A DNA stretch of 64,000 bases from Candidatus Saccharimonadales bacterium (GTDB lineage: Bacteria; Patescibacteriota; Saccharimonadia; Saccharimonadales; EFPC-124): the NCBI GenBank assembly GCA_035280845.1, contig DATEFB010000026.1, positions 16,055 to 80,054 of the forward strand, in the 5' to 3' direction. Position 1 is the stretch's first letter. Each line of letters starts with the position of its first letter. A program made the translations under genes and the position numbers. Positions 187-58,208 of this stretch are shown piece by piece. The notes beneath the pieces were generated by a model that saw only the letters and a program-made list of their open reading frames with translations, was not told where the DNA came from and did not search any database.

Positions 187-423
187 ATGCGCACAGTCCC
201 GCCCCGGCGGCGACCGTCTGGCGTGAAGGGCGTACTACTGATGATCGGCGCGTTGATCGTGCTGCTCACCTACCCGCTCGGTGTGATCTGGATACTCCTG
301 ACCACGCAAGACACCGGGGTGAGCATGCCCCGCCGACTGTGGTACGCGCTGGGTTGGCCGCTGATCACGTTCATCTCGATGATGGACGAAGCCAGCAAGC
401 GTCTGCCCCACGCGATCAACTGA
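187..423 (+). CDS. HGC-1: small membrane protein (two hydrophobic spans), no family recognised
   Basis: ORF 112-423 trimmed to ATG 187, 5 nt after AGGAGG (176-181). Hydrophobic spans GVLLMIGALIVLLTYPLGVIWILL and LWYALGWPLITFI. 58-70% GC on counted lines. TGA stop. Confidence 0.6.
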   Translation: MRTVPPRRRPSGVKGVLLMIGALIVLLTYPLGVIWILLTTQDTGVSMPRRLWYALGWPLITFISMMDEASKRLPHAIN

Positions 424-429
424 GTACAC

Positions 430-467
430 GGTCAGCCCGCGGCGTCTTCGGACCCCGTGGGCTGACC
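430..467 (+). terminator. GC-rich hairpin after HGC-1
   Basis: GGTCAGCCCGCGG (430-442) pairs with CCGTGGGCTGACC (455-467), 13 bp with one G-U. Starts 7 nt after the stop and ends 5 nt before the convergent dut stop. Confidence 0.6.
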
Positions 468-471
468 GTCA

Positions 472-900
472 CTATTTGCCGGTGCTGCCGAATCCACCAC
501 TGCGATCTGAATCGCTGAGCTCGCTCACTTCTTCCCATTCGATTGTTTCGTGTTTTGTCACTACCATCTGGGCAATGCGGTCGCCATCGTTAATGGTGTA
601 AGGCTCGTTGCTGAGGTTGATTAAAATAACGCCGTATTCTCCCCTGTAGTCAGCATCGATGGTGCCGGGAGCGTTCACAATGCTAATGCCGTGCTTGGCA
701 GCCAGGCCGCTGCGTGGCCGGATCTGAGCTTCGTACCCGGGCGGCAGCGCTGCGAACACGCCTGTTGGCACCACGGCGCGTTCCAGCGTCCCGAGGATGA
801 TTGGCGCGTCAATGTTAGCCGAAAGGTCGACCGCAGCCGAATGCGGTGTCTGGTGCACTGGTAGCGGATGTTTCGATTTGTTCACGACCTGTAGCTTCAT
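472..900 (-). CDS. dut: dUTP diphosphatase
   Basis: ORF 472-966 trimmed to MKLQVV (ATG at 898-900, AAGGAG upstream). Trimeric dUTPase motifs [20 protein letters not shown] and RSGGFGSTG. Confidence 0.93.
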
Positions 901-901
901 G

Positions 902-1789
902 TTATTTCTCCTTTTGTTGTGGCGCCGGCTGGCACACCGGGCAGGTATGCGTACCCCGGCCGGCAACCCGCGTCTTTATAATTACTGTTCCGCAGCGCGT
1001 GCATGGCTGGCCTTCGCGCCGAAACACATTGGCAAATGTCAGGTAGCTTCCTCGCTTGCCAGTCGCATCCACATAATTGCGGTCTGTTGAGCCGCCTTTT
1101 TGGATACTCAAACGAAGCACTGCCAGCAGGCCTTCGTACAACTTTTTTAACCGGGCAACCGGGACATCCCCTACCTTTGTTTCTGGGTGGATTTTTGCTA
1201 ACCACAGGCTTTCGTCGGCGTAGATGTTACCAATGCCGGCCACGACGGTTTGGTCGAGCAGCACTGCCTTTATACCGCTCTTTGCCCTGCGGTTCAAGCG
1301 TTCTATAAAAATATCTGCAGTAAAGTCGGCGGCCAGCGGTTCGGGACCAACTTTTTTAAAGAAATCCAACTCTTCGACCTCTGCCGTTGGCAGTAGGCGC
1401 ATCCAGCCAAACTTGCGCTGGTCGTTAAAAAACAGCCGGGACCCGTCGGTAAAGGTAAGCGTTACCCTGGTTGATTTGTCGGGCAGCTCGCCCACCAAAC
1501 TAGCATTAGGGTGTCCGGCGCCAAACGCAGCCGTCTTGCTGCGGAACACCAACTGGCCGGTCATCTTTAAATGGATCACCAGTGAATAGTTGGTCGAAAC
1601 ATCAATAATCAGCACCTTCGCGCGGCGGCGCACAGCCGTTACAGACGCGCCAATCAAAAATTGCGCAACATCCTGGGGTGAATTCGGAAAACCACGCGGC
1701 CAATCATGTTTCTGGCTGGCAATCGTACGGCCGGGCAGCAGGCCGTCGAGGCCAATCCGGACTGTTTCAACTTCGGGCAATTCAGGCAT
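902..1789 (-). CDS. mutM: formamidopyrimidine-DNA glycosylase
   Basis: N-terminal MPELPEVE catalytic motif, H2TH region, C-terminal CTRCG...CPVCQ zinc finger. 295 aa. Confidence 0.93.
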
Positions 1790-2512: not shown

Positions 2513-4009
2513 CTAGAACCGCGCGTTCCAAACGAATGTCGCGGTTGTGGCGCCAGGGTCGGCGTTCACGTTGATCGTAAACTGTGTGGCACCAACGCCA
2601 CTGATCCAGAATTTTGTCGCTGTTCCCATGCTGTTAGTTGGCGTCACGCTAATGTTCGCCAGCGCCGGAGTCGCCGCCAATGTATGCGTCACTGCAATTG
2701 ACGTTGTGCCGTTTGCGACCGTCGCCGCTCCTGTGGCCTCTGTCCGCCAACCCAGGTTATTGCGCAGAATAGTGTTTGTGCCGGCCGATTCTACCAGCGC
2801 AACGGTTGGCGCGGCGTTCTGCACAAGGACGTTATCGACAATAAGGTTATCGCCAGACCCGCCAGTTGCCTCTTCGCGGATAAGGCTGCGTGTTTTACCG
2901 GCGTCACCATCTGTCTGAATATTGTTTCCAGAAATAATGTTATAGTGCGTGCCAAATTCCAGGTGGATAGCCGAGGCAGCCACGTTACCTTGGTCGCCGG
3001 TGCTCGCGAAGAGGTTGTTCGCAACAATGTTACTACTGCCGACAATAAAGATGTTGTCGCCCGCAACGCCATCGAATGTCGAGCCAATAATGCGGGTGTT
3101 GCTTTGGTCCTGAATGCGGATGCCGATACAGTTGTTGCCGCCGCCCACAAAGTTAAGGCTAATAAAATGTTGTAGTCCGGCCTGATCCAATAACGCGACC
3201 GGCCGCGAACCGACCGGGTTGAGTGCGCCACCTAAGTTTTCGAAATCGCAGGCGATCAGCCAGTTTTCGTCGCTGCCGGTCAGCCAGACGCCGCCGCCAA
3301 AACCATCGCTGTTGTTGGAGTTATCGAACAAACAACTCAATACACGGTTATGGTGGCCGTATGCCCCGCCCTGCATTGGCCCCAATTTGAGCCCCCAGTT
3401 GTAGCTGCTGTAACAATGGACGCGCTCAAAACTGCACTGCACGGCGCCGTCGGCCGAGATGCCACCGCCAGCTGTTTGGTTGTCGGCGTTGCCGTCTACG
3501 GCAAAGTCTGCAAAATGCGCACCTGTAACTGGGTTACCTGCACCAGCCGCGAACTTAATGACGTAATCATTCAGTCCGTTAGCCGCTTTTAAGATTGTTT
3601 CTTCGCGGCCCATGCCAATGATCGTAATTGGCCCACTAATAGTCAGTGGTGCGCCGACAATTGCCGTACCCGCCCCAAGTAACAGCGGTTTGTTAGCAGT
3701 GATTGCAGCCGCAATAGCAGCCTGCAGCGCAACAGCGTCGTTGGTAGCGTTATCGAACACGGCACCGTAGTCACGGGCATACACGACGTGCTCATTCTTT
3801 TGGAGCGCATTGTTAAGAGTGGTTTGCAGGCCACTCGTCAGGTCAGTTATAGGGATACCGGCGCCCGGTTTGGTGTAACGCGTCAGGGCTGTATCGATGT
3901 CGGCGCTGCGCTTCAGGGAACCGTCGGTGTTGTGCTCGACATCTAAAAAGGCATTGAGGACGTCGCCCCAAACTCCACTGTCACCCCCAGGTGTTGGTAA
4001 TCGTGCCAT
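2513..4009 (-). CDS. right-handed parallel beta-helix (pectate-lyase-fold) repeat protein, tailspike/glycosidase-like
   Basis: 498 aa with many Gly/Asn-rich ~22-aa turns (NNxFxxxGDxGI-type repeats, e.g. IIGSTFDGVAGDNIFIVGSSNIVANNLF). N-terminal MARLPTPGGDSGVWGDVLN. Fold call is from repeat pattern only. Confidence 0.7.
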   Translation of the reverse strand: MARLPTPGGDSGVWGDVLNAFLDVEHNTDGSLKRSADIDTALTRYTKPGAGIPITDLTSGLQTTLNNALQKNEHVVYARDYGAVFDNATNDAVALQAAIAAAITANKPLLLGAGTAIVGAPLTISGPITIIGMGREETILKAANGLNDYVIKFAAGAGNPVTGAHFADFAVDGNADNQTAGGGISADGAVQCSFERVHCYSSYNWGLKLGPMQGGAYGHHNRVLSCLFDNSNNSDGFGGGVWLTGSDENWLIACDFENLGGALNPVGSRPVALLDQAGLQHFISLNFVGGGNNCIGIRIQDQSNTRIIGSTFDGVAGDNIFIVGSSNIVANNLFASTGDQGNVAASAIHLEFGTHYNIISGNNIQTDGDAGKTRSLIREEATGGSGDNLIVDNVLVQNAAPTVALVESAGTNTILRNNLGWRTEATGAATVANGTTSIAVTHTLAATPALANISVTPTNSMGTATKFWISGVGATQFTINVNADPGATTATFVWNARF

Positions 4010-4061: not shown

Positions 4062-4898
4062 CTACTTGGCGAACCACTGTCGGACAGCAGGCGTAATCGT
4101 CGATGCAATGTGCTTATTGGGGCCCGGTATTACTGCGACCCCCACCCCTTCAAAGACTTTCATGCCAGCCACATCGAAGTTACGGACGATGTAGATTGTT
4201 GCCTGCTCGTATTCCCGTGTCAGCTCGCGCCACACAACAAAACGGTTTAGAAGTTCAAGTTGGCCAGGTTTAAATTGGCGGTCAGTCTCTTCGTGGAGCT
4301 CGCGGATGGCAGCCTGGAGCGAGGTCTCGCCTTCTTCGCAGCCGCCACCAAATGCACCAATCTTGCCGGGCTGGTCGATGCCCGGCTTATCGTCCCGCTG
4401 ATGGCCATACATGGTGCCGTCCGGGCCTATGAAGAGCGTAGCAGCCGAGCGGTGCACCTCTGGATGCTCAGCTGTGGCATTCAGAATATAGTCGCGCTCT
4501 TTAAACCACTTCTCGGCGCCCGGCCGGCAGACTGGTGCCAAAAGCGGATCGTCGAGGCTGCGCACCACATGGTATCCCTGGCCTTCATAGACCTCGAGCC
4601 CCTGCACAGAGACACCTTTGGCGATATAAATAAATTCATGTTCCAGGCGGTCGGCCGACAGGTCAAAATCGTACGTGATCCATTCTTCCAGGTCGGCTTC
4701 GGTTAGGTTGAGGTTGGTTTCTTCGTTAATTTCGCGTACAGCCGCAGCCAATGGTGAGGCGTCTTCGGGCTCCAGTGTGCCGCCAAAAAAACTCGCCAGG
4801 CCGGGGCTGTTAATGCCAGGCTTGTCATCGCGGTGTTGGGTGATCAAGTTGCCTTCGGGGTCAATCAGCAGCACGCCCGCGCAGTTGAATTCAGCCAT
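4062..4898 (-). CDS. tandem double-Nudix hydrolase
   Basis: Two Nudix boxes: GGTLEPEDASPLAAAVREINEETNL and GGGCEEGETSLQAAIRELHEETD. Confidence 0.85.
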   Translation of the reverse strand: MAEFNCAGVLLIDPEGNLITQHRDDKPGINSPGLASFFGGTLEPEDASPLAAAVREINEETNLNLTEADLEEWITYDFDLSADRLEHEFIYIAKGVSVQGLEVYEGQGYHVVRSLDDPLLAPVCRPGAEKWFKERDYILNATAEHPEVHRSAATLFIGPDGTMYGHQRDDKPGIDQPGKIGAFGGGCEEGETSLQAAIRELHEETDRQFKPGQLELLNRFVVWRELTREYEQATIYIVRNFDVAGMKVFEGVGVAVIPGPNKHIASTITPAVRQWFAK

Positions 4899-5483: not shown

Positions 5484-8027
5484 ATGATACAATTGGTCTT
5501 TATGTCAACTGGAGAGATGGAAGATATTATTTTGGAACCCGGCTACCAACGGGTTGAGCACGTCGACGAAGAACCGTCGCACGCCCTGTTTGCGGCCTGG
5601 CAAAACAGCTCGGTCAACCAGGCAAACGCCCGCGAGGACCGCGAATTCCAGCGCACCGTACTCCGCGACGTCGTTGAAAGCGCCGCCCAATCGCAGGGCG
5701 ACCCCGCGCGCCGCGCCATAATCCGGGCGTACGGCGACATTACCGCCTATTTCTGGTTCGGGAACGACCACACGCCACTCCCCCGCGGCCTAAAGCGCTA
5801 TCTGCTGCCCGACGAAGACACGCCCATGCTCACCCTCGATTACAACCACGCCGACCACCAGGACATGCACAATGTCGCGGCCATGCTTGGCCCGCTCGGC
5901 CTTGGGGAGCTGCTGGCATACCGCCGTGAACTGTTTAATGAGCAAAGCCCTCACCTCTTTGAACCACTGGTCGAGGCGCTTGTCTCGAACACGCCCGGCT
6001 ACCGTTTGCTGGAGAGCTTTAACCTGGACCGCTACACCTGGAACGAGCGGCCGTTAACGCCCGTTGAACGCCTACTCGAGGAACAGGCCGCCGAAGATTC
6101 AGTCCGGCGGCGCCACGGCGTACCCGCCGGACAAGACCTGCGCACCCATACCGCCGCGCGGGCCGACCTGACGCGGGCTGTCCTGCGTCTTGATGAAACC
6201 ACCCGCTACGACCGCCATGCCATCCCCGAAACAGATTCGCCAGCAACCCGCGCGATCAAATTCTTTAAAGGATTGGCTGCTGACGAACTTGGCAGCTCTG
6301 TGCGCGGCACCGAGATCCGCTCTATAAAAACGGTGCATTACAACATGCCCGCCGACCCGCCACCAACTGGCGACCGCCGCCCGCTCCTCCCCCAAAAAGA
6401 GCAGGGTGCATACAGCGTTATCCGGATCGTCACCGACGCCGAAACAGTCAACCACTCCACCGAATCGTTCATAACCTGGGCCCAATCGATGGATTATTTG
6501 AGCTCGCCCGGCCAGGCCCGGCTGCGAGGCATTTCGACGTTCCTGGTTACCGACGCGCTCACAGCCCTCCTCGACGAAGAAGGCGCCGACATTAACTACA
6601 GCGAGCTTCTGGAAGAATTACTTGCCCGCTATACCGGCAGCCTGGCTGAATCCTACCGCGATTTTGTCAGCGCCAACATAGCCAGCCGGCAATTTGGCAC
6701 GCTGGCAACGCTTCTGGCTATGCCGAGCGAATTCGATGAAGAACTGGATTCGTTCATCCTTGCCTACGACAAACGACAGGGCTTTGAGCCACTCCGCGCC
6801 CTGTCGCGCCGTGAGTACAAACGCGGCATGCGTGAATCGCTGGGCAGCATTAAAAAACGGCCCGTCGATGATACCAACCAGCGCATCATCCAGTACCACG
6901 ACGCCGATCCCGAACTGGGCGGGTTCGATGAAGACGAGGCCGACCTTATTTTGAAGCTCAAAGCAATCGGCGACGGGCTCTTCCCCACCATCCCCGGCTA
7001 CCAACCGCTTGGGCTGGACGCCGAACGCAAGCTGTTCGCCCTGCGCTACACGCCCGAGGCCGACCCCTACACCGAATGCTCCACCATTATTCCCGACCAA
7101 GCCCGGCTGGCGCTCGCCCAAACCTACGCCGATGTTGGCCTGCATGAACTGGCTATGCTCGTGCACGGCACTCCAAACCTGACTGTCAGCCAGCTAACGC
7201 GCGACATCAGCCGTACCAACCGCTACATCTTGCCGCGCGATGCCTTTATGCCAGAATTCCCCGCCAACCTTGCAGATTACGCCGGACAAATTGGAGCCGA
7301 CGGTCGGCTGCACATGCAGTGCGTGGGGTCATCGCACTTTTTGTACCTGTCGCTTAAAGAGGCGTTCGGCACCGAGGCCGTGAGCATCATTAACGGCGAT
7401 GCCCTGCCAAGCATTGGCCGCCGCCTGCCCGGGGTCGGGCACCAGCAAACACCGTTTACAGATCCCGAAACAAACCAGCTCTATATTTTAGATGCCACGT
7501 CGCGCGGGGTCAGTACGATCGAAGTCCGAAACGCCGTCTCGGGCTATACAGACGCCCTTCGGCGTTTGGTTGGCCTGCATGTCCTGAAGCAGCTTATCCG
7601 GCCGCGTACAGCCCCAGAAGCGCCTAAGCGCCCACGTTTTGAATCCACGGAGGACCGGACTGTTGCCAGCCCCGAGGCACATCGTCAGGTGCTCCTTGAA
7701 CAAAACCGCGACACGCTGATTATGCAGCTGCGTATGGTGTACGGCACCGATGGCCGCCCTATGCGCCACGACGACCTGCTAGAGCAGACCGCCGGGCTTC
7801 ACACCGACGACATTGTATTCCGCACGCTCAGTACCGCTATTCTGGCGGCGGGCGGCCAGGCCGAACCCGAAGATCCGGCGCGGATCATGCGCTACATCCA
7901 AGCCCTCCAGGACTGCGACGACCGTTCCCTGCTGCGCAAGGTCGACCCCTTTGAATACACCCGCCAGCCGCGCCTGCTGCACGCGCTCGAAAAAGCGCTG
8001 GCCGAGATAGCCCGGCTTAGTCGTTAA
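5484..8027 (+). CDS. large hypothetical protein (847 aa) with possible C-terminal transglutaminase-like Cys-His-Asp core
   Basis: Long uninterrupted ORF at about 58% GC. Cys613 (7320-7322), His653 (7440-7442) and Asp670 (7491-7493) have the spacing seen in transglutaminase-fold cysteine proteases. Start codon uncertain (ATG at 5484, 5502 or 5517). Confidence 0.7.
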   Translation: MIQLVFMSTGEMEDIILEPGYQRVEHVDEEPSHALFAAWQNSSVNQANAREDREFQRTVLRDVVESAAQSQGDPARRAIIRAYGDITAYFWFGNDHTPLPRGLKRYLLPDEDTPMLTLDYNHADHQDMHNVAAMLGPLGLGELLAYRRELFNEQSPHLFEPLVEALVSNTPGYRLLESFNLDRYTWNERPLTPVERLLEEQAAEDSVRRRHGVPAGQDLRTHTAARADLTRAVLRLDETTRYDRHAIPETDSPATRAIKFFKGLAADELGSSVRGTEIRSIKTVHYNMPADPPPTGDRRPLLPQKEQGAYSVIRIVTDAETVNHSTESFITWAQSMDYLSSPGQARLRGISTFLVTDALTALLDEEGADINYSELLEELLARYTGSLAESYRDFVSANIASRQFGTLATLLAMPSEFDEELDSFILAYDKRQGFEPLRALSRREYKRGMRESLGSIKKRPVDDTNQRIIQYHDADPELGGFDEDEADLILKLKAIGDGLFPTIPGYQPLGLDAERKLFALRYTPEADPYTECSTIIPDQARLALAQTYADVGLHELAMLVHGTPNLTVSQLTRDISRTNRYILPRDAFMPEFPANLADYAGQIGADGRLHMQCVGSSHFLYLSLKEAFGTEAVSIINGDALPSIGRRLPGVGHQQTPFTDPETNQLYILDATSRGVSTIEVRNAVSGYTDALRRLVGLHVLKQLIRPRTAPEAPKRPRFESTEDRTVASPEAHRQVLLEQNRDTLIMQLRMVYGTDGRPMRHDDLLEQTAGLHTDDIVFRTLSTAILAAGGQAEPEDPARIMRYIQALQDCDDRSLLRKVDPFEYTRQPRLLHALEKALAEIARLSR

Positions 8028-8928
8028 GGTCGGTCCGGTAGCGCTGGTACAATTCCTTCGTATCAGGGCAGAGCTGCGATTCGGCGGCTAACTCGTTTAT
8101 GTGCTCAGCTGTCATCCAGGCTGTTGCGTCCCATTCGTGCGGGTTCTGTAAATCCTGCTGTTTTTTAAGGGTGATTTCGTATACATAAATGGTGTGGGTC
8201 ACAGTTGGGTCGGAATAATCCATCTTAAAGCAAAACTGCACGCGCTGTCGCAGCCCCGTTTCTTCTTTAAGCTCCCGTTGGGCGGCATCTTCGGGGTCTT
8301 CACTGTCATGCACTTTGCCGCCTGCGCCCAAGCCCCATAATCCGGGGTAATATTTTTTGTCCGGGCGGCGGCGGTGCGCAAAATACGCGCCAGTTTCGTC
8401 GCGGATAATCACCACCGCCACGCGGGTATGCGTCTGGCCAATGGTATATTCGGCATGCATAAAGCCATCGTTGTGCCACTTGTTTTTGACCATTTTAAAA
8501 TCGAACTGGGCTTTGTAATCGCCAAACATTGGCAGCCCTTTCTCGAGTAAAATCGGATGAATATCAACATACACCCGACTTACAACGTCGGCCTGCATAA
8601 AACTATGGTTCGTTTTGGCGCCGCCAATCACCAGTAGTTTCTTAAAGCCAAGTTCGCGGGCTTTGGCTATGGCTTCATCGACATTCGTTACAAAATGAAC
8701 CGATTCGTGTTTGTTCTTTTTGGGGATTTTGTGGACCAGCACAATGTGCTGCACGCCTTCGAACGCCGGCCCGCCATATTCACGGTAGGTGGCGTGCCCC
8801 ATGCAAATACACCCGTATTTGCGGGCAGTTGCCTCAAATAATTCTTCGTCGGCGACCCAGGCTGTGTTTCCGTAGCGGTCAGCAATAAACCCCTCTACCG
8901 AGGCAGCAATGTATAAATCCACCTTCAT
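8017..8928 (-). CDS. fusion protein: RibD_C/dihydrofolate-reductase-like domain plus Nudix hydrolase domain
   Basis: N-terminus MKVDLYIAASVEGFIADRYG...LLVIGGAKT is DHFR-family-like. C-terminus has Nudix box GGKVHDSEDPEDAAQRELKEETGL. Convergent 11-nt overlap with 5484-8027. Confidence 0.8.
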   Translation of the reverse strand: MKVDLYIAASVEGFIADRYGNTAWVADEELFEATARKYGCICMGHATYREYGGPAFEGVQHIVLVHKIPKKNKHESVHFVTNVDEAIAKARELGFKKLLVIGGAKTNHSFMQADVVSRVYVDIHPILLEKGLPMFGDYKAQFDFKMVKNKWHNDGFMHAEYTIGQTHTRVAVVIIRDETGAYFAHRRRPDKKYYPGLWGLGAGGKVHDSEDPEDAAQRELKEETGLRQRVQFCFKMDYSDPTVTHTIYVYEITLKKQQDLQNPHEWDATAWMTAEHINELAAESQLCPDTKELYQRYRTDLND

Positions 8929-8999
8929 GAGGCAGACTCCAGGACGGCCGCTTTCCCCTCTTGCATACTCTTAGTGTACCAAAGTTTAGATATGGAAAT

Positions 9000-9032
9000 G
9001 GCCCGGCGCACGGGGTTACGTGCATCCGGGCC
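9000..9032 (-). terminator. GC-rich hairpin after HGC-3
   Basis: GGCCCGG (9000-9006) pairs with CCGGGCC (9026-9032), with inner GCACG/CGTGC. Lies 23 nt beyond the TGA of 9056-9961. Confidence 0.55.
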
Positions 9033-9055
9033 AGTTCCATCCCTGCGTCTGAGCG

Positions 9056-11078: not shown

Positions 11079-11182
11079 GATGTAATTTTACTCTTTTTTT
11101 ACTACAGTAGCCGAATGTGAAAAAATCGTTATTTATTCCAAAGCTATTGTGCTTCGAGGGAACGAATGATATCGTTTGTCAC

Positions 11183-11404
11183 ATGTTGGGGATAGTTTAC
11201 GTGGTTATGATTATAATGATTGCCGTCGCGGTACGCGTATTCTTTAAGAAGGCCTGGATTGCCCAGTTAATCACTGGCGCCGGCCTCCTGCCCGCCCTTA
11301 TTTACTGCCTTATAACGCACAACTGGCTGTTGGCAGTCCCCCTCTTGCTGATTTGCGTTTCCGACCTGCGCTGGGCGCAGCGGAATTTTGCAATGCGGTT
11401 TTAG
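11183..11404 (+). CDS. small membrane protein (low-GC islet)
   Basis: ORF 11117-11404. ATG 11183 gives MLGIVYVVMIIMIAVAV... with 2-3 hydrophobic spans. AT-rich relative to neighbours. Start uncertain. Confidence 0.45.
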   Translation: MLGIVYVVMIIMIAVAVRVFFKKAWIAQLITGAGLLPALIYCLITHNWLLAVPLLLICVSDLRWAQRNFAMRF

Positions 11405-11462
11405 CGCAGGCTTCCTCATTGCTATAGATTGAAATCTGGGACGACAGTAGTAAAATAGCAGC

Positions 11463-11993
11463 ATGATAGCTGAAAAATTCCACATTATTGATGATTCTGG
11501 CATCAAATGGTGGATGTCTACCTACGATTCCAATCGAGCCCAGCCTTACTGTAGCGATCATAATATGCCGCTCCTCATTCCAGCTGAGAGAAGCCTGACT
11601 AGCCTTGCCTGCCCAGACTGCTCCGCACGCAAGCAGCTTCCCCGCTCGTGGCATGAACAGGAAAAATATGCAGCGCACAAGATACGATCAAAAGACATAG
11701 CAAAGGTTGATGTCATTGACCACAATGGGGTATTGACTCCAGTTGCAAAGGTTAAAGTGAGAGATACCGAATATAGCATCACCACGCAAATCATGGAATC
11801 TAAACATGGCCATCAAATAGTTATCTATGCAGGCAAAAAGGGCCACAAGAATTCACAAATCTTTGTCGACACAGATAATCACAAACTTGCTTTTGACCAT
11901 AAAGATACTAAGCCAACAGAGATATTTGCAAAAATCGAAGCGACCTTTAAAGACGGCACCAAGATGGTAATTGAAGCAGAGCCTAAAGCTTAA
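11463..11993 (+). CDS. hypothetical protein with N-terminal zinc-ribbon-like CxxH...CxxC (low-GC islet)
   Basis: 176 aa. PYCSDH...LACPDCSARK motif. Lys-rich beta-type C-terminus. 4-nt convergent overlap with polA. Confidence 0.6.
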   Translation: MIAEKFHIIDDSGIKWWMSTYDSNRAQPYCSDHNMPLLIPAERSLTSLACPDCSARKQLPRSWHEQEKYAAHKIRSKDIAKVDVIDHNGVLTPVAKVKVRDTEYSITTQIMESKHGHQIVIYAGKKGHKNSQIFVDTDNHKLAFDHKDTKPTEIFAKIEATFKDGTKMVIEAEPKA

Positions 11994-17146: not shown

Positions 17147-17148
17147 AG

Positions 17149-44315: not shown

Positions 44316-44357
44316 ATAGTTTCTAGTGTAGCAGGCAACTACCCCGTATACGAACAG

Positions 44358-44400
44358 TGGCCGTGCCGCAGACGCCGAAGGGGCGAATGCGACACGGCCA
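44358..44400 (-). terminator. GC-rich hairpin after HGC-9
   Basis: TGGCCGTG (44358-44365) pairs with CACGGCCA (44393-44400). Lies 22 nt beyond the TGA. Confidence 0.5.
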
Positions 44401-44422
44401 GTGCCGTTCTTGCAGGGATGAC

Positions 44423-45221: not shown

Positions 45222-46871
45222 CTACATCATGCCCATGCCTGGCATGCCGCCACCGGCACCGCCAGCTGGCGCTTCCTTCTCTGGAACTTCAACAACCAAA
45301 GCGCCCATAGTCATTGCGGTTGCAGCAATACTTACGGCGTTCTGAATTGCCTCTTTCGTCACGCGGGCTGGGTCAACGATGCCTTTTGCCTTGAGGTCAA
45401 TCAGGGCGTCTGGGCTATTAACGTCAAAGCCTTGCCCGGCTTTCTTACTCTTAACAACTTCTGGCAATTTTTCGTCGGCGTTTACACCGGCGTTCACCAT
45501 CAGCTGGCGGAATGGCTGGAGCAAAGCGTTCTTCAAGATCTGGCGGCCAGCAGCGATGCCGTCGGTACCCGCAACTTCGATGCCTTTGCTCAGGTCGACG
45601 AGTGTTACGCCACCACCGGCAACAATGCCTTCATCAAGCGCAGCCTTGGTTGCGGCTACGGCGTCATCGACGCGGAATTTGGCTTCCTCAATCTCGACTT
45701 CACTGGCACCACCAACCTTAATCACGGCGACTTTGCCACCAAGGGCTGCGGCGCGCTTCTCGTAATTCTCTTTGTCGTAGTCGCTGGTTGTCGCTGCGGC
45801 CTGGGCGCGGATTTGCTTCACGCGCTCGCTCACATCTTTTGGCGTACCAGCGCCTTCAATAATGGTAGTCTCGTCTTTAGTGACAAGCACCTTGCGGGCA
45901 GAACCAACCATGCTTAGGTCGGCGGTCTCAAAGGTGATGCCCTGTTCACTGCTAATAACTGTTGCGCCGGTCAAAACAGCCAAATCCTGCAAAATATCCT
46001 TGCGACGGTCACCAAAGGCAGGAGCTTTTACAGCTACAGTGTTAAAGACGCCCTTCAGTTTGTTCAGGATGAGGATGCCCATCACCTCGGCCTCTACGTC
46101 TTCAGCAATAAGCACGAGGTCCTTTTTGCCAGCTTGGGCAAGCTTTTCGAGCATTGGCAGGAATTGCTGGGCACTTGTAATTTTTTCGTCAGTAATAACG
46201 ACTGCTGGTTTTTCGTAAACAGCTTCCATACGGGTGGTGTCGGTAACCATGTATGGGCTCACGTAGCCACGGTCCATGGTGAAGCCTTCCACGATTTCGC
46301 TCTCGAGGTGCAGGCCTTGACCTTCCTCTACGGTTACAACGCCGTCTTTGCCGACCTTACTAATGACATCGGCAATCAGCTTGCCGATTTCTTTGTCGCC
46401 AGCAGAAATGGTGGCGACTTCAGCGACGCGCTCTTTTTTGCTGCCAATGTCTTCGCGGAGTTCTGCAAGCTTGGCCAGCACTTCGGCGCCAGCTTGCTCA
46501 ACACCTTTGCGGAGCTCCATTGGATTGTGGCCAGCGGCAATAAGGCGGTTGGCTTCAGCCAGGATGCTGTAAGTCAGTACGGTAACGGTAGTCGTGCCAT
46601 CACCGGCGACATCGTTCATTTTGTTGGCAGCCTGCTTAATCAGCTCGGCGCCGACTTTGTAGCCCAATGTCTCGTCATCGTCATCTGGAAGGTCAACTGC
46701 TTTCGCAACAGTCACACCGTCGTGGGTCACCGTTGGGCCACCATAGCTTTTGCCAATCACCACATTGCGGCCTTTTGGCCCCATGGTCACTTTTACTGCG
46801 TCGTATAAGGCCTTTGCGCCGCCGAGTACGCGGGCGCGGGCGTCGTCGTCATAAAATACTTTTTTTGCCAT
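45222..46871 (-). CDS. groL: chaperonin GroEL
   Basis: 549 aa. GDGTTT motif. C-terminal GGMPGMGMM tail. Confidence 0.97.
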   Translation of the reverse strand: MAKKVFYDDDARARVLGGAKALYDAVKVTMGPKGRNVVIGKSYGGPTVTHDGVTVAKAVDLPDDDDETLGYKVGAELIKQAANKMNDVAGDGTTTVTVLTYSILAEANRLIAAGHNPMELRKGVEQAGAEVLAKLAELREDIGSKKERVAEVATISAGDKEIGKLIADVISKVGKDGVVTVEEGQGLHLESEIVEGFTMDRGYVSPYMVTDTTRMEAVYEKPAVVITDEKITSAQQFLPMLEKLAQAGKKDLVLIAEDVEAEVMGILILNKLKGVFNTVAVKAPAFGDRRKDILQDLAVLTGATVISSEQGITFETADLSMVGSARKVLVTKDETTIIEGAGTPKDVSERVKQIRAQAAATTSDYDKENYEKRAAALGGKVAVIKVGGASEVEIEEAKFRVDDAVAATKAALDEGIVAGGGVTLVDLSKGIEVAGTDGIAAGRQILKNALLQPFRQLMVNAGVNADEKLPEVVKSKKAGQGFDVNSPDALIDLKAKGIVDPARVTKEAIQNAVSIAATAMTMGALVVEVPEKEAPAGGAGGGMPGMGMM

Positions 46872-47940: not shown

Positions 47941-47993
47941 CGGTTACCCGGCGTAAGTCCCCAGACGGACTGCGCCGGGTGACCGGTTTTTTT
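47941..47993 (+). terminator. intrinsic terminator after HGC-10
   Basis: CGGTTACCCGGCG (47941-47953) pairs with CGCCGGGTGACCG (47973-47985, one G-U), followed by a T7 run at 47987-47993. Confidence 0.7.
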
Positions 47994-48065: not shown

Positions 48066-48101
48066 CCCTGCCCGGTGCCCAAACAAGGGCACCGGGCAGG
48101 G
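48066..48101 (-). terminator. GC-rich hairpin after the HGC-11 operon
   Basis: CCCTGCCCGGTGCCC (48066-48080) pairs with GGGCACCGGGCAGGG (48087-48101), 15 bp perfect with a 6-nt loop. Lies 8 nt beyond the TGA. Confidence 0.7.
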
Positions 48102-48109: not shown

Positions 48110-49060
48110 TCAGTTGAGCTGGCGTCCGGTTAGATACCGGCCCGCGACCGCCAGGCGAAGCTGGGCGCCTTCACCTCTGGCGATGATGGCGAAGTTGCCA
48201 AGCTGAAGCCGATGCTCCAGACCGGGCAGCCACCAGGCGCCGGCGGGGTCCCACCACACGATCGTGTCGCTGACCGTGCTGTTGGGCGCACCGCCACCGA
48301 CGATCGGCATGGCGCCGCCGCCTTCGATTGCCGGCCTGCGCTCCCCCTGGGTGCCCGCCAGGGCATACAGGGCCGACGGGCGGACTTGCCCTACCAGGCG
48401 CACCGGTCCGACCGGTCGCGCCGGCTCGTAGCGGTACCTCCTGGGTGTAGCAGGCACAGTCGAGTAGTCGAAGTCATCGACCTGCCACTCGCCGCCCTCC
48501 CAGAAAGGCACGTTTGCGAACCGCGCGATCATGGGCGTCAGCGCATCACCGTCGTCCGGATGCGGCAGGCGCGTGAGCCCCTGCCCGCTCGCCGTACAGG
48601 CCAGCAGGTAGGTGTTCATGAAGCTGTCGCCGACATCCCAGAGGTTCTCGGGGAGGCCGAGCAGCAGCTCTACCGGCGTGTCGCTGCCCATCACCTCTCG
48701 CCAGTCGACCAGGCGAAGGAAGGGCAGCAGCGTCTTGAACCGGCCAGTGGCCTGTTCAATCTGCCTGCGCACCTCCTGCACCTCGCGCTCGCGCTGGATG
48801 TCGGAAACGGTGATGAACCGGTTGATGATGCCCGGCAGCACCTCGGCCTCGATGTCCTCGAACGCTTCGGTGATCTCACGGATGTAGGGGTTCTCGCCCG
48901 CCACGTCCGTGTGCAGGGACCGCTGAAGGCCGCGGTAGGCGTTCTTGATGATCTCCATCAATCGCGCCACCCGCTCTGGCTCTGTGAGCGACGAATCGCC
49001 CCAGATACCAGCGACGATGTACTTGGGGATACCCAGCGATTCCAGAGGGTTCCGGATCAC
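48110..49060 (-). CDS. HGC-11b: hypothetical protein with degenerate J-domain-like N-terminus (HTD instead of HPD)
   Basis: GTG at 49058-49060 overlaps the upstream stop (GTGA). N-terminus NPLESLGIP...IIKNAYRGLQRSLHTDVAGENP...EITEAFEDI parallels the J-domain helix I-III pattern. 45/60 GC on line 48361. Confidence 0.7.
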   Translation of the reverse strand: MIRNPLESLGIPKYIVAGIWGDSSLTEPERVARLMEIIKNAYRGLQRSLHTDVAGENPYIREITEAFEDIEAEVLPGIINRFITVSDIQREREVQEVRRQIEQATGRFKTLLPFLRLVDWREVMGSDTPVELLLGLPENLWDVGDSFMNTYLLACTASGQGLTRLPHPDDGDALTPMIARFANVPFWEGGEWQVDDFDYSTVPATPRRYRYEPARPVGPVRLVGQVRPSALYALAGTQGERRPAIEGGGAMPIVGGGAPNSTVSDTIVWWDPAGAWWLPGLEHRLQLGNFAIIARGEGAQLRLAVAGRYLTGRQLN

Positions 49061-49695
49061 CGGTATGCCTCCTCGTCGGTATCGCCATCGTCATCGTCAT
49101 CGCCGTCGTCGGCACCGGCGGACACCTTCTGGCGGCCGTAGGGGTCGTCGTCGTCCTCGTCCCCAGCCGGCACGCTGTGGTGCTCGCACGCGCCGGACAG
49201 CACGGAATCGGTCTGGTCGATGGTGAACGCCTGAGCGTTGGCCCATCCACCCAACCGGGTCATGTACTGTGCTGCCTGCTCTGCCGAGGCCGCGGTGAAG
49301 CCGGCCTCATTGAGCTTGTCGAACCACGCGAGCATCCGCACGAGAATAGAGTCCTCTTCGAGGCTGTTATTCGCGGCGGATTCCTCGGCGGTACGCAGAC
49401 CCGTCGCCTCCAGGCACTCGATGGCCATGTAGACGGCATCAATGCCGTAGTCGTCGATCAGACGGTCGAACCAGTCCCCCATCTGCTGCTTGTGGTAGCC
49501 CGCGGCGTCGGCCAACAGGTCGACAGCGGCCTCCGTGTTCAGCGAAGGGAACCTGCTGACGATGTCAGCGATCACGAACATCTGGGCCTTGTCCAGCAGC
49601 GCGAGGTGCTGGTCCCACGCAAGTACGGATGCCAGCGCACCCCCGGCGCGATTGACGCGGGCGGGAAGGCGCGGATCCGGCTCTTGAGCGGTCAT
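49057..49695 (-). CDS. HGC-11a: hypothetical protein with poly-Asp C-terminal tail
   Basis: ORF trimmed to MTAQEPD (ATG at 49693-49695, GGAGGA SD). The longer start would lie inside the upstream terminator hairpin. Tail is GDEDDDDPYGRQKVSAGADDGDDDDDGDTDEE. Confidence 0.7.
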   Translation of the reverse strand: MTAQEPDPRLPARVNRAGGALASVLAWDQHLALLDKAQMFVIADIVSRFPSLNTEAAVDLLADAAGYHKQQMGDWFDRLIDDYGIDAVYMAIECLEATGLRTAEESAANNSLEEDSILVRMLAWFDKLNEAGFTAASAEQAAQYMTRLGGWANAQAFTIDQTDSVLSGACEHHSVPAGDEDDDDPYGRQKVSAGADDGDDDDDGDTDEEAYR

Positions 49696-52802: not shown

Positions 52803-53195
52803 TTGAGCGCGGATCGAACGTCTGCATCCTCCTCTGGTAACCAAGGGGAAGATACGCAGATCAGTTACGACATTCGTGCACCGGTAGGGGGCCTCCGCGA
52901 TGCGGTACAGGCACTCATCGGTAACGATGCTCGTCGCTTCATCGATCTGGCAATCAGTTCGGGTCCGGGACATCGTGCCGAGGTGAGGGTCTACCCTCAC
53001 GCCGACATGCTGCACCCTGATTCGACGCGAGAGGACCTGTTCCACATCTTTGGCGCCACGTGCTACCCGCTCGTGGACGGCAAAGAGACAGGCCCGGGCA
53101 TCAGTTGCTCGGGGTACGTCAACACGCAAGTCACCATCGCACCACTAGAAACCGGGAAGCTTCGGCTTCTGTTCACCGAGGGAGATCCACTGTGA
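52803..53195 (+). CDS. HGC-12a: hypothetical protein (~130 aa)
   Basis: TTG 52803 lies 8 nt after GAGGAGG (52788-52794). The track start GTG 52794 overlaps the SD. The TGA stop overlaps the next start (GTGA). Confidence 0.6.
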   Translation: MSADRTSASSSGNQGEDTQISYDIRAPVGGLRDAVQALIGNDARRFIDLAISSGPGHRAEVRVYPHADMLHPDSTREDLFHIFGATCYPLVDGKETGPGISCSGYVNTQVTIAPLETGKLRLLFTEGDPL

Positions 53196-53839
53196 TCACA
53201 ACCATCAGCGGCGTCGACATCCCCCAGTCCTTCCAGACCAACATGGAAGCGCAGGGGATCAAGGCCGCGAGCCAGATCACCGCCTACTCCATCATCACCG
53301 AGATCAACGGCGAGATGGTGGAGCTGGTGACCCAGTGCCGTGCCGGTGCCCGCAAGGACTGGCGCGACCTCCTGGGGTTGAACCTCACGGAGGACATCGA
53401 CGCCCAGTGGGCGATGGCCTGGGTCAACGCCGACGGCTCGATCGAGACCGCTGGTCCCAACCTGGTGCTCGCCAAGCGGGCCGCCGCGAACCTGCGGAAG
53501 TACCACTTCAGCGGTGATGCTCTGCGGGTCTCGGTCGAGAACACCAACGACCACGACGCGCCGTTCGCCTTCTTCGGGGAGACCCTGGAGGGTGACCGCG
53601 ACGTCGCCGTCTACGAGGGCACCGACCTCCGTCCGTACGAGCGCGCCTTCGTCGGCGAGCTGTACGGCGTCGAGCCCACCGCCCCCTGGGGCATGGCCTG
53701 GCAGCCGGTTTCCATCCCCTGCGCGACGGGGGAGGACGGCGAGAACCCGGAGCCGGAGTTCCACCGCGTGATCGTGGCCGTCGGCACCTCGACGGAGCAC
53801 GCCTACCAGGCGTTCCGCGACCTCGCCGTCTGCAACTGA
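53192..53839 (+). CDS. HGC-12b: hypothetical protein (215 aa)
   Basis: GTG 53192 is in frame with ORF 53060-53839 and preceded by GAGGGAG. 42/60 GC on line 53581. TGA stop. Confidence 0.65.
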   Translation: MITTISGVDIPQSFQTNMEAQGIKAASQITAYSIITEINGEMVELVTQCRAGARKDWRDLLGLNLTEDIDAQWAMAWVNADGSIETAGPNLVLAKRAAANLRKYHFSGDALRVSVENTNDHDAPFAFFGETLEGDRDVAVYEGTDLRPYERAFVGELYGVEPTAPWGMAWQPVSIPCATGEDGENPEPEFHRVIVAVGTSTEHAYQAFRDLAVCN

Positions 53840-53865: not shown

Positions 53866-53908
53866 CACCCCGGCAGCCGTTTCCCTCGTGGATTCGGAAG
53901 CCGGGGTG
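53866..53908 (+). terminator. GC-rich hairpin after the HGC-12 operon
   Basis: CACCCCGGC (53866-53874) pairs with GCCGGGGTG (53900-53908). Confidence 0.55.
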
Positions 53909-56162: not shown

Positions 56163-56192
56163 AGCTATATCTATGATAGCAAAGGTGGCAAG

Positions 56193-57488
56193 TTATGCAG
56201 TTTTCTTTTGAAGGGCTTCGCGGGCAATGCCGGCGTCGCTCCACGGCTGGCGCTCCCCGCCAACAATGCGGAATTGCTCGTGGCCCATCCCTGTTATAGC
56301 TACGATGTCTCGGGGCCGAGCCTCCGAGATAGCTTTGACAATCGCCTCTTTACGGTCGGCCACCTCAACAGTCTTGGACTGACCCTTCCCTTGCACAATA
56401 CCTTCCATGACTGCCGCGCGAATCGCAGCCGGGTCCTCGTAATAGGGCTCGTCATCTGTCAGGATGATGCGGTCAGCCAACCGGGCGGCAATTTCGCCCA
56501 TAATCGGCCGTTTTCCCTTGTCTCGGTCGCCAGTAGCACCAAATACCACCCACAACTTGCCTTTTGTCAGATGGCGCAGGGTGTCGAGCAGGTTCTGCAA
56601 CGCGTCGGGCGTGTGCGCATAGTCGATCACCACTTCAAATCGCTGGCCTTCATCGATCCGCTCCATGCGGCCTGGGACGCTTTCGAGAGCTTCAATCCCC
56701 TTGGTCACCTGCTCTGGCTCAAGCTGAAGATAATACCCTACAGCGGCGGCTGCGGTGGCATTATACACGTTAAACTTGCCGGGCAAGTGGGTGTGAAAAG
56801 CCAATGTATGTTCGTTTTCCACCTTAAGGGTGACATCTGTCCCCTGGTGGCCCAGATCGGCTTCAGCGATCCGCACTGTTGACGCTTTATCTGTACCGTA
56901 CGTAACCTTGCGCTCGCTGGCTTCGTACTTGTTATAAAAATCAAACCAGTCGTCGTCTCGGTTGAGCACAATCAGTTTTGGCCGCCGGGCAAACAGTTTA
57001 CCCTTGGCTTCGGCGTAGCGCTCCATAGTCTTGTGGTAGTCCAGATGGTCCTGAGTCAGGTTGGTCATAACGGCTACGTCGCACGGGACGCCCCAGACCC
57101 GGTGCTGCACCAGCGCCATAGAGGTAACCTCCATTACAATGTAGTCGCAGCCATTCTGCTTCATGCGGGCCAACATGCGCTGAACCTCAAAAATGTCGTT
57201 TACTGTTCGGTTAGAGGTGTTTGGCTCGAGCGTGCCATCACCGAAGCTGTAAAATGCTGTGCTATTTACACCGACTTTATGGCCAGCCTGCATCAGCATC
57301 TTGGCGATGTATGCAACAGTAGTCGTTTTACCGTTTGTTCCGGTTACCATAATCACCCTTGCGCTACGCGCCGGAAACCCATATCGAATGTTGGCCGCTA
57401 TGGCTACCACCAAGTGATAGGCGTTCGCAACCTGATACACGGCGTTCTTAGGAATCACCTTTTTAATACCCTGTTTGATCTGGTGCAT
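56193..57488 (-). CDS. murE: UDP-N-acetylmuramoyl-tripeptide synthetase (MurE-type Mur ligase)
   Basis: ORF 56193-57608 trimmed to MHQIKQGI (ATG at 57486-57488). P-loop VTGTNGKTTT. DYAHTPDAL motif. Confidence 0.85.
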   Translation of the reverse strand: MHQIKQGIKKVIPKNAVYQVANAYHLVVAIAANIRYGFPARSARVIMVTGTNGKTTTVAYIAKMLMQAGHKVGVNSTAFYSFGDGTLEPNTSNRTVNDIFEVQRMLARMKQNGCDYIVMEVTSMALVQHRVWGVPCDVAVMTNLTQDHLDYHKTMERYAEAKGKLFARRPKLIVLNRDDDWFDFYNKYEASERKVTYGTDKASTVRIAEADLGHQGTDVTLKVENEHTLAFHTHLPGKFNVYNATAAAAVGYYLQLEPEQVTKGIEALESVPGRMERIDEGQRFEVVIDYAHTPDALQNLLDTLRHLTKGKLWVVFGATGDRDKGKRPIMGEIAARLADRIILTDDEPYYEDPAAIRAAVMEGIVQGKGQSKTVEVADRKEAIVKAISEARPRDIVAITGMGHEQFRIVGGERQPWSDAGIAREALQKKTA

Positions 57489-57542
57489 ATACCCTCGCTT
57501 TTGTCTTATGCCAATCATAGCAGATAGACGGAGGTGCGTGAT

Positions 57543-58166
57543 ATGGGGTACAGTTATGGCGTCCTTTGTTCCATCTGCGGATTCGGAGATACCGTGCCCC
57601 TTCTGCAAGCGTATGCTCGGCCAGAGGTCATAGCCACTTCGTCAGATGCCCCTTTCGTTATAGCTATCGCCGGAGAGGCGCCATCAAGCACCCTGCACAC
57701 TGGCGGTCTGGCTACCACCAATAAAGGCTGGGCAATCCTGGCCGCACCCTTTGTCGATGACCCCTGTAACGGCCTGGGCGCCGCAAGTTGTGGCCAGGCC
57801 ATGGCACTGCGCGCCTTCAAGAGTGCGTACGACCGGCACATGCTGCCACGAGACGACAACTTCACCCTGGTCACCGAAAGTATGGATCTCGCCCATCTGT
57901 TGATCAGATGGCAGAACGGCGACGAACATCTCCCCCTGTGGTACGCCCGCACCGGCGTAAACTCCACCCTTCGGAAGGTGCAGCGCGGCGTCCTTAGGAT
58001 TGGCCGCCGGATGACAGTGCGCTGCCTGCCGGTCATGAGTCTGCCACCGGTGGGCGAGGCCGCCAGGTTACTGTCGTTCATCGGCCTGCGCTACCTCAGG
58101 GGCGACATCTCCCCAGCCGACCAGCACGACGAAGCCCGAATCGCCCTCCGTGAAGCGGGGCTGTAA
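57543..58166 (+). CDS. HGC-13: hypothetical protein (207 aa)
   Basis: ATG 57543 lies 8 nt after GGAGG (57530-57534). High GC. The only cassette ORF ending in TAA. Confidence 0.65.
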   Translation: MGYSYGVLCSICGFGDTVPLLQAYARPEVIATSSDAPFVIAIAGEAPSSTLHTGGLATTNKGWAILAAPFVDDPCNGLGAASCGQAMALRAFKSAYDRHMLPRDDNFTLVTESMDLAHLLIRWQNGDEHLPLWYARTGVNSTLRKVQRGVLRIGRRMTVRCLPVMSLPPVGEAARLLSFIGLRYLRGDISPADQHDEARIALREAGL

Positions 58167-58181
58167 CAGAGCAGAGGACAT

Positions 58182-58208
58182 GGGTTCCGGGGCGCACGCT
58201 CCGGACCC
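58182..58208 (+). terminator. GC-rich hairpin after HGC-13
   Basis: GGGTTCCGG (58182-58190) pairs with CCGGACCC (58201-58208), with one bulged T. Confidence 0.45.

Follow-up and report, generated by a model that had tools for sequence, protein, structure and literature searches.

The window analysed here, a 64,000-nt stretch with a GC content of 56.2%, is part of a 92.9-kb NCBI contig whose source is given as Candidatus Saccharimonadales bacterium (locus tags VJM32_*). Between its housekeeping operons lie 13 transcription units with 15 open reading frames (ORFs), referred to below as cassettes C1 to C15. They have a block GC content of 62.3-69.4%, seen as plateaus of 0.60-0.69 in a 400-nt profile, while the backbone has a GC content of 0.51-0.58. 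These GC-rich islands make up about 17% of the window. The units are listed below with the GC content at third codon positions (GC3) of their ORFs.

C1, 187/112-423, plus strand: small hydrophobic ORF at the window edge, TGA stop, GC3 0.80; hairpin 428-469 (fold -40.6 kcal/mol); no Pfam or NCBIfam hit
C2, 1879-2448, plus strand: 189-aa ORFan, TGA stop, GC 0.64, GC3 0.79; hairpin 2458-2495 (-36 kcal/mol); no Pfam, PHROG or PADLOC hit
C3, 9056-9961, minus strand: 301-aa ORFan, TGA stop, GC 0.65, GC3 0.77; hairpin 8988-9044; no family hits (Pfam, PHROG, PADLOC)
C4, 21506-22498, minus strand: predicted secreted LytM/M23-like peptidase with a twin-arginine-type signal, TGA stop, GC3 0.88; hairpin 21455-21496
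C5, 25545-26423, minus strand: 292-aa ORFan, TGA stop, GC3 0.81; hairpin 25477-25532
C6, 34111-34965, minus strand: secreted NodB/PgdA-type polysaccharide/peptidoglycan deacetylase with a signal peptide, TGA stop, GC3 0.77; hairpin 34065-34095
C7, 36304-36993, plus strand: 229-aa ORFan adjoining tRNA-Ser(GGA) at 36089-36180, TGA stop, GC3 0.72; hairpin 37001-37036
C8, 37123-37686, plus strand: 187-aa ORFan, TGA stop, GC3 0.79; hairpin 37687-37712
C9, 44423-45103, minus strand: 226-aa ORFan, TGA stop, GC3 0.91, the maximum of the class; hairpin 44353-44405
C10, 47309-47926, plus strand: PlsC-type lysophospholipid acyltransferase, TGA stop, GC3 0.85; hairpin 47941-47985 with a T tail
C12-C11, minus strand, two-gene unit: C12 at 49057-49695 (212-aa acidic-tailed ORFan, GC3 0.80) and C11 at 48110-49060 (316-aa ORFan, GC3 0.84), 4-nt overlap, both TGA stops; hairpin 48066-48101
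C13-C14, plus strand, two-gene unit: ORFans at 52803-53195 (130 aa, GC3 0.64) and 53192-53839 (215 aa, GC3 0.86), both TGA stops; hairpin 53866-53908; no hits in Pfam, NCBIfam, PHROGs or PADLOC
C15, 57543-58166, plus strand: ORFan of about 207 aa, TAA stop, GC3 0.70, the least distinct single-gene unit; hairpin 58181-58209

Three of the 15 products, those of C4, C6 and C10, could be recognised; the remaining 12 had no match in Pfam, NCBIfam (where tested), PHROGs or PADLOC. In C4, the motifs HxxxD (H104/D108) and HxH (H264/H266) are invariant across nine homologues, several of which have the twin-arginine leader. The Pfam M23 match is weak (20.7, under the cut-off of 28.7), and PDB sequence-profile searches with C4 and C5 found nothing. 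The structure model of C4 is of low confidence, with a mean predicted local distance difference test score (pLDDT) of 57.5 and 75-93 in the core, and the 14 top Foldseek matches in the PDB are all LytM/M23 domains. By both motif and fold, C4 is a predicted LytM/M23-like peptidase. C6 matches Pfam PF01522 (43.6 bits, cut-off 23.1), with NCBIfam PgdA and NodB matches under the equivalog cut-offs, and C10 matches PF01553 (76.7 bits, cut-off 23), with a TIGR00530 score of 56.5 under its cut-off of 103. The C5 family has 21 invariant columns over seven members that are 22-35% identical, and its structure model (pLDDT 52.6) is too low for use. Since the C4 and C5 families have kept invariant structural and catalytic columns, and the C4 fold matches LytM/M23, both look like real proteins. 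Because the three recognisable products act on the cell envelope, the class plausibly serves the interaction between the surfaces of epibiont and host. The 90% cluster of C2 has three members, all metagenomic or from Saccharimonadales; its hairpin also serves as a bidirectional terminator for the convergent beta-helix/pectate-lyase-like gene at 2513-4009.

A preliminary description of this DNA had guessed the backbone to be of Saccharibacteria type, on which the NCBI name and the GroEL relatives agree. The 80 best genomic relatives of the GroEL gene at 45222-46871 are almost exclusively Saccharibacteria metagenome-assembled genomes; the closest, L006, is 84% identical and the remaining ones at most 77%. 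A metagenome GroEL scan gave no relative above 77% identity, hence no close relatives were added.

The source contig is a MEGAHIT-style metagenome contig (k141_2610388), which makes it possible in principle that high-GC reads were spliced into a Saccharibacteria contig by chimeric assembly or binning. The C4 block with both flanks, and the stretch from groES to C10 and C11, were found again in contigs of a second ENA assembly, and the C4 block also in the Logan assembly of SRA run SRR5195123; the checked junctions agree across contigs of the three assemblies, with at most 2 mismatches over overlaps of 3-9 kb. Other species, from samples with no relation to this one, have orthologous cassettes enclosed by the same housekeeping genes (Logan SRR13589006 and SRR25934543, ENA ERZ27392699, JGI 3300063416 and 3300078620). 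Every unit is laid out with promoter, Shine-Dalgarno sequence and terminator, and no neighbour is truncated. With three assemblies in agreement and the orthologous arrangements of other species, we consider a chimera very unlikely and give it next to no weight.

Composition and signals of the units

In their correct frames, the cassette ORFs have GC3 values of 0.64-0.91, against mostly 0.56-0.67 in backbone genes, and their GC contents at the three codon positions (GC1/GC2/GC3 of about 0.66/0.49/0.8) are like those of a 65-68% GC genome. The preliminary description, which had reported 13 blocks with 15 ORFs of foreign-type high GC as a distinct compositional class, was right in both respects. 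In several blocks an antisense shadow (GC1 about 0.85) is longer than any other ORF; that description had the reading frames right, in agreement with the genes called on the public contig. In C13 the elevation of GC is weak. The mean GC profile of 12 units has about 0.55 in the flanks, falls to 0.35 in the promoter zone (-80 to -40), rises to 0.62-0.67 from the start codon on and to 0.68 across the hairpin, and is 0.43-0.54 beyond it. Thus, the GC boundaries are sharp and confined to the transcription unit, with no gradient into the neighbours. Amino-acid usage has also moved towards that of Streptomyces, with 2.5% lysine in the cassettes, 5.7% in the backbone and 1.4% in Streptomyces.

The reported bias towards TGA stops holds (TGA ends 14 of the 15 cassette ORFs and about 8 of 50 in the backbone; Fisher p = 7e-8), C15 with TAA being the exception. 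GGAGG-like Shine-Dalgarno motifs precede most annotated cassette starts. Within the 34-54 kb part that was scanned, a sigma-70-like promoter match lies directly upstream of five of seven units, such as TTGCCA-17-TATAGT at 36214-36242 for C7, TTGTAA-17-TATAAT at 45188-45160 for C9 and TAGACA-17-TATAAT (11/12) at 49769-49741 for C12-C11. A long GC-rich hairpin ends 13 of 13 units, one more than had been counted before. Folding energies of the 70 nt that follow the stop codon range from -28 to -41 kcal/mol, and the mean is -33.4 kcal/mol after the 15 cassette ORFs against -16.8 kcal/mol in the backbone (Mann-Whitney p = 7e-8). Within the same 34-54 kb, only the C10 hairpin has a T tail by the scan criterion. 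When the hairpin sequences were compared, nothing was shared beyond chance 8-10-mers, and a repeated hairpin element (repetitive extragenic palindrome, miniature inverted-repeat transposable element or attC) was rejected for that reason.

All units occupy intergenic spacers between housekeeping operons and leave their neighbours intact, as had been claimed. No direct repeats or target-site duplications of at least 9 bp flank the cassettes, no integrase, transposase or other mobility gene is found among the called genes, and no paralogy was found among the cassette products. Only C7-C8 lies near a tRNA gene, the tRNA-Ser, which is conserved in relatives. Since ORFans of backbone composition are also present in the window, lack of annotation does not define the GC-rich class.

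Three further observations concern the composition and flanks of the units. An 847-aa ORFan at 5484-8027 (plus strand; GC 0.60, GC3 0.71, TAA stop, strongly negative GC skew, without a match in Pfam or NCBIfam) possibly belongs to the GC-rich class as an older member; the earlier list had missed it. An AT-rich islet at 11117-11993, with two small ORFs (GC 0.48 and 0.43, GC3 0.64 and 0.44, no family hits), is an outlier of opposite sign. Exact inverted repeats of 10-11 nt connect the 5' leader and the 3' flank of C3 (-41/+9), C7 (-27/+43) and C8 (-24/+35, relative to start and stop); they are present in 3 of the 13 units, compared with about 2% of controls with mispaired flanks and none of 49 backbone genes, and their duplex energies are no better than those of mispaired flanks.

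The same slots in diverged relatives

All four families that could be traced (C4, C5, C6 and C7) occur at or beside the same sites in other Saccharimonadales species, where the cassette copies are 29-62% identical and most flanking genes 65-96%:

C4 in L086 (56-60% identity) and L088 (56-62%): rpoD/beta-lactamase-like slot shared, flanks 58-100% identical
C5 in L175 (33-34%): DnaG/g26566 slot shared, DnaG 88-90% and g26566 65% identical
C6 in L092 (56-62%): same slot beside the ABC1 ATPase gene, flanks 84-94% identical, GC3 of the copy 0.87
C6 in L093 (45-52%): same variable region, adjoining the g35045 homologue rather than the transporter, flanks 66-96% identical, GC3 of the copy 0.84
C7 in L093 (29-32%): same position, flanks as for C6, GC3 of the copy 0.86-0.89

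The traced copies are usually GC3-elevated in the relatives as well. The C4 copies have GC3 values of 0.70 (L086) and 0.83-0.85 (L088) against 0.54-0.61 in their neighbours, the C5 copy in L175 has 0.67, and a C6 homologue in a different context in L090 has 0.89. Because diverged copies occupy the same slots, recent capture is not supported for the traced families. In a close relative (JGI 3300078620), compared at the protein level, the cassette proteins are 92-93% identical and C6-C7 and C10-C12 stand in the same order. A close relative has a copy of C8 on a JGI contig of 6350 bp, the contig size also listed for its C6 and C7 copies. Two further C4 homologues are found in other Saccharimonadales-type contexts, one by a ValRS-like fragment and one between MFS and PMT_2 genes (L089, a contig of SRR14005100). 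Since members of the C4 family occur in these two other contexts, the family has moved within the clade over time.

The slots also differ in content. The comparison with sister genomes that had been proposed in the preliminary description revealed empty sites: the groES|PGM spacer of L006 is 70 bp long exactly where the window has C10-C12, and C8 is absent from its position in L093. Conversely, L093 holds a gene with a GC3 of 0.94 where the window has a 75-bp spacer. In three further slots L006 has small ORFs unlike those of the window, with GC3 raised to 0.88, to 0.86 and, less strongly, to 0.75: the C9 slot has a different ORF with GC3 0.88, the C15 slot (MurE|TsaD) a 102-aa ORF with GC3 0.86 and a TGA stop, and the C13-C14 slot a different GC-rich ORF. 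No cassette product has a relative within 10 kb on either side of GroEL in 80 Saccharibacteria species, and the backbone genes there are syntenic. Similar isolated ORFs elsewhere in Saccharibacteria number 0-3 per about 20 kb and are enriched in the clade of the window, L090 and L093. Examples, with GC3 0.83-0.94, no Pfam domain and often TGA stops, are found in L090 (7286-7786 and 15386-16516), L093 (2939-3670), L012 (7694-8269) and L021 (1296-1727). Among the relatives compared, L006 belongs to CAZJVU01, L090 is the 437-kb scaffold of ERZ1758402 and L093 is NODE_1 of ERZ27392699.

Some neighbouring genes deserve mention. Two pairs of paralogues in inverted orientation, each made up of an ABC ATPase and a MacB/FtsX permease, at 32071-34016 (minus strand) and 37858-39965 (plus strand; 42% and 26% identical), bracket a variable stretch that comprises C6, the ORFan 35045-36004, tRNA-Ser(GGA), C7 and C8. 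The same bracket in L093 has different contents, including a GDSL lipase, DUF4385 and an AT-rich ORF. A carotenoid cluster of backbone composition lies at 15624-19740 (minus strand; L086 2403-6511) and contains lycopene-cyclase-like, crtB, crtI/D and polyprenyl synthase genes; in L086, an acyltransferase-3 gene and two ATP-citrate-lyase-like genes are inserted between the beta-lactamase-like gene and the carotenoid cluster.

Divergence, origin and rival explanations

The relatives are distant, with a backbone DNA identity of only 65-78%, and DNA similarity is continuous from the backbone into C6. At conserved codons, backbone identity at four-fold degenerate sites is 0.33-0.52, against 0.26-0.45 expected at random. 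The corresponding excess fraction in the backbone is about 0.10 for L086, 0.18 for L093 and 0.2-0.27 for L092, L088 and L175 (full range 0.08-0.33); in the cassettes it is 0.12-0.35 for C4, C6 and C7, and 0.03 for C5, the most diverged. Because their four-fold divergence is at the same level, C4, C6 and C7 have co-diverged with the backbone and are not hypermutating, and hypermutation was rejected as an explanation. Since synonymous divergence equals that of the backbone, there is likewise no evidence of allele replacement. The proteins of C5, C6 and C7 diverge faster than those of most flanking genes; C4 lies near the low end of the range in its flanks.

We then compared the excess of GC at four-fold sites (GC4) with neutral decay, using an equal-input model calibrated on backbone four-fold sites, in which the excess at the split shrinks by the square root of the excess fraction. 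Under this model even a start at 100% GC leaves at most +0.10 to +0.15 today. The observed GC4 excesses are:

C4: window +0.195; L088 +0.19; L086 +0.11
C5: window +0.125; L175 -0.11
C6: window +0.075; L092 +0.19; L093 +0.17
C7: window +0.075; L093 +0.19

The mean GC4 excess is at the upper neutral bound, and some copies have clearly decayed. A weakly constrained or GC-biased mutational equilibrium was rejected, as fast backbone genes and presumably lowly expressed genes keep GC3 values of about 0.6-0.65: the backbone gene at 40041-41033 is 40% identical with GC3 0.58, FemAB is 43% identical with normal GC3, and polA and dnaG, presumed to be lowly expressed, have about 0.65. No rank correlation of identity with GC3 was found in the L006 or L093 gene sets. 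As a separate observation, genes for the sanitation of oxidised nucleotides are unusually concentrated in the window (902-1789, 4062-4898, 8017-8928 and 43445-43969; the set comprises fpg/mutM, a double-Nudix protein, a DHFR-Nudix fusion and another Nudix hydrolase) and may bear on the mutational spectrum of the lineage and its comparatively high GC for Saccharibacteria.

Donors were sought in large databases, for C4, C6 and C11 in 5.8 billion proteins and for C5 by an exhaustive HMMER scan of 1.84 billion representatives, and none of the four had a near-identical donor there. The searches returned eight C4 homologues (55-66% identity) and about seven C5 homologues, of which the one in L175 could be placed in a slot; C11 had no homologue past its own 92% cluster in the 5.8 billion proteins. 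Outside the clade, C6 has relatives in Micrococcaceae (Zafaria, Arthrobacter, Paeniglutamicibacter), Arachnia, an Actinomycetota metagenome-assembled genome and one Lysobacter, with 42-52% identity over the catalytic domain; the best identity outside the clade is 52%, and that to the Micrococcaceae and Arachnia deacetylases is 45-52%. In a neighbour-joining tree (without support values), the four verified Saccharimonadales copies of C6 form one clade that includes no named Actinomycetota and adjoins Actinomycetota deacetylase groups. This would fit a single old transfer out of Actinomycetota, after which the gene was passed down inside the clade. In a tblastn search of plasmids with C10, 64 of the 78 matching records were from Actinomycetota, mostly Streptomyces, at 30-40% identity, which weakly suggests an affinity to Actinomycetota. 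The actinobacteria-like donor proposed in the preliminary description is therefore in keeping with the nearest named relatives of C6 and C10, while C4, C5 and C11 have no foreign relative in these searches; the proposed direction from host to epibiont is plausible for C6 only, as an ancient transfer, and is otherwise unsupported. Between species with flanks of 85-96% identity, the ORFans share 29-34%, and divergence this fast could have erased the donor signal.

A phage origin and an origin as defence systems were rejected. When the 15 products were compared by tblastn with 50,697 phage records, the only matches were generic ones to deacetylases and acyltransferases, IMG/VR scans with C3, C4, C5, C9 and C11 found no relatives, and 10 ORFans had no hits in PHROGs or PADLOC.

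We propose, with about even confidence, that the blocks were acquired horizontally, long ago and as single genes, from high-GC bacteria and now persist as fast-evolving, partly ameliorated residents of a soil Saccharimonadales clade. Single genes would have entered ancestors of the clade at different times from bacteria of 65-70% GC, a step whose basis is phylogenetic for C6 (with Actinomycetota as nearest outgroup), a hint for C10 and composition for the others. The DNA would probably have arrived by natural transformation and been integrated by illegitimate recombination next to terminators. The genes would then have come to use native-type promoters. Each unit is self-contained: an AT-rich leader with a sigma-70-like promoter comes first, then a Shine-Dalgarno sequence and the one or two ORFs, and a strong terminator hairpin rich in GC closes it. 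The genes would have been inherited vertically in the same slots, with synonymous divergence like that of the backbone and with GC3 only partly eroded, and the slots may still gain, lose or turn over genes. Staggered ages of acquisition would give a range of GC3 such as that of the cassettes (0.64-0.91).

Several observations weigh against this account. Amelioration looks slower than neutral, as the C4 copies of the window and L088, the C6 copies of L092 and L093 and the C7 copy of L093 have GC4 excesses of +0.17 to +0.20, about 2.5 standard errors above the bound. By parsimony, lineage-specific four-fold changes number 14 from strong to weak bases (S>W) against 1 in the reverse direction (W>S) in C4 and C6; the corresponding count in three backbone genes is 78:52. 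In a simulation, ratios of 3-4.5:1 at GC4 0.85 and 1.4-1.5:1 at 0.65 arose from parsimony bias by itself, and against these the 14:1 lean of the cassettes is not significant. The 78:52 ratio fits the simulated bias, so the backbone appears to be at equilibrium. The very large databases gave no donor homologue for C4, C5 or C11, the ORFans tested, and composition is thus the sole argument for a foreign origin of 12 of the 15 ORFs. The preference of the cassettes for C or G at the third base follows the backbone (r = 0.92) more closely than Streptomyces (r = 0.77; 8 families, one reference), which is a weak hint of long residence and lends no support to a specific donor. Finally, the integration mechanism is one that we infer entirely; there is no integrase or transposase, no direct repeat at the flanks and no sequence common to the hairpins.

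Some of these points favour a second, more tentative explanation, in which the units are long-term residents of whatever origin whose GC-rich composition is actively kept, by GC-biased gene conversion at recombination-prone polymorphic loci or by selection on codon or mRNA properties, so that a discrete, fast-evolving GC-rich compartment for host interaction lies amid a slow housekeeping backbone. The GC3 excess recurs in orthologues of four families despite near-saturated synonymous sites, several of them above the neutral bound, the ORFan families are restricted to the clade, and the codon preference for C or G resembles that of the backbone. Rate alone fails to explain the GC, as the fast backbone genes 40041-41033 and FemAB keep normal GC3, and a GC3 of 0.85 is not the neutral equilibrium of the genome because the lowly expressed polA and dnaG have about 0.65. 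We know of no bacterial process, however, that gives a 25-point GC3 gap confined to single genes, and the sharp boundaries with no gradient into the flanks also speak against active maintenance. The excess has been lost in C5 of L175 (GC3 0.67) and C4 of L086 (0.70) and is reduced in C6 and C7 of the window (about 0.75), as in decay; singleton changes lean S>W by 14:1, though not significantly after bias modelling; and GC1 and GC2 are shifted too, as in a true high-GC genome.

Many independent and recent captures of single genes from an actinobacterial host, about one per 5 kb, had been the original interpretation of these units, and we consider it improbable. High GC, TGA stops, untailed GC hairpins, the twin-arginine signal and the Saccharibacteria backbone all agree with it, as do the empty site of L006 for C10-C12 and the fact that C1-C3 and C8-C15 were found in no relative beyond 90-93% cluster members. 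It is contradicted by the presence of C4 (L086, L088), C5 (L175), C6 (L092, L093) and C7 (L093), that is, all four traceable families, at the same sites in diverged species, by the failure to find a high-identity donor for C4, C5, C6 and C11, by a top Actinomycetota identity of 45-52% (for C6), by AT-rich sigma-70-type promoters with strong TTGACA/TATAAT-like matches, and by cassettes that are already common to relatives differing by 7-8% in protein sequence. From the sequence comparisons, recent capture appears largely refuted for C4-C7.

Known systems and biological meaning

Among known systems, the units resemble the genomic islets of the Lawrence and Ochman amelioration model, which are likewise atypical, patchily distributed intergenic genes with a spread of GC3, and as there, proteins evolve faster in three of the four traced families. 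Unlike islets, the units are single genes without mobility genes or flanking repeats, and only C7-C8 lies by a tRNA gene. Acquired genes are usually AT-richer than the recipient, whereas the units are GC-richer. They are also positionally conserved over near-saturating synonymous divergence, with a GC3 excess at or above the neutral decay bound. Classical ORFans are reportedly AT-rich and thought to be phage-derived, following the description of taxonomically restricted bacterial ORFans attributed to Daubin and Ochman in 2004. The ORFans of the window are similarly short, lineage-restricted, without database relatives, mostly fast-evolving and interspersed in synteny, but they are GC-rich and have no relatives in PHROGs, INPHARED or IMG/VR.

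An ORF followed by a hairpin-forming site is also the layout of integron cassettes. The units of the window, in contrast, are scattered, each with its own promoter, and show no attC architecture, tandem array or IntI integrase, and an integron origin was rejected. Flexible or replacement islands and two-speed genomes share with the units the conserved slots, a content far more diverged than the flanks and the inclusion of envelope-acting enzymes; the slots of the window differ in being single-gene and in their compositional shift towards GC.

The density of the units is high but of the order reported for Patescibacteria, and the preliminary description overstated the case in finding the density without precedent. 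A survey of Patescibacteria (mSystems 2025, PMC12455944) found hundreds of islands and single transferred genes, up to 13% of genome length, to be compared with about 17% of the window. The transfers in that survey are mostly not recent (3.9-34.5% divergence between partners), and most were exchanges within Patescibacteria, Actinomycetota being a minor donor with 1 event (PMC12455944). That survey used donor-recipient pairs, whereas the signal in the window is compositional, with no donors for the ORFans tested. A full-text literature search found no report of GC-rich gene islets in Saccharibacteria.

The best-supported account, that of old and partly ameliorated acquisitions, is ordinary in kind. 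The decay of GC3, which looks slower than neutral, leaves room for a maintained GC-rich compartment. A bolder form of this idea, which we regard as rather doubtful, is that the maintained composition marks a compartment of a bacterial 'two-speed genome' whose single-gene units for host interaction have host-like, that is Actinomycetota-like, codon usage, stops and untailed hairpins. In its extreme version, the units would be tuned for expression in a high-GC host after DNA delivery by a conjugation-like type IV secretion system, a system that has reportedly been described for Patescibacteria.

The strong contrast seen here did not mean recent transfer, which is a caution for composition scans. 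With conserved flanks and diverged GC-rich single genes, the slots offer a compact way to date the gain of genes in an epibiont that is not in culture, and the same slots test whether amelioration runs at the neutral rate, the assumption under most composition-based dating of horizontal transfer. The M23 peptidase, the peptidoglycan deacetylase and the acyltransferase are candidate enzymes acting on the host surface, and if the envelope-acting cassettes came from Actinomycetota, they would be a genomic clue to the hosts of soil Saccharimonadales.

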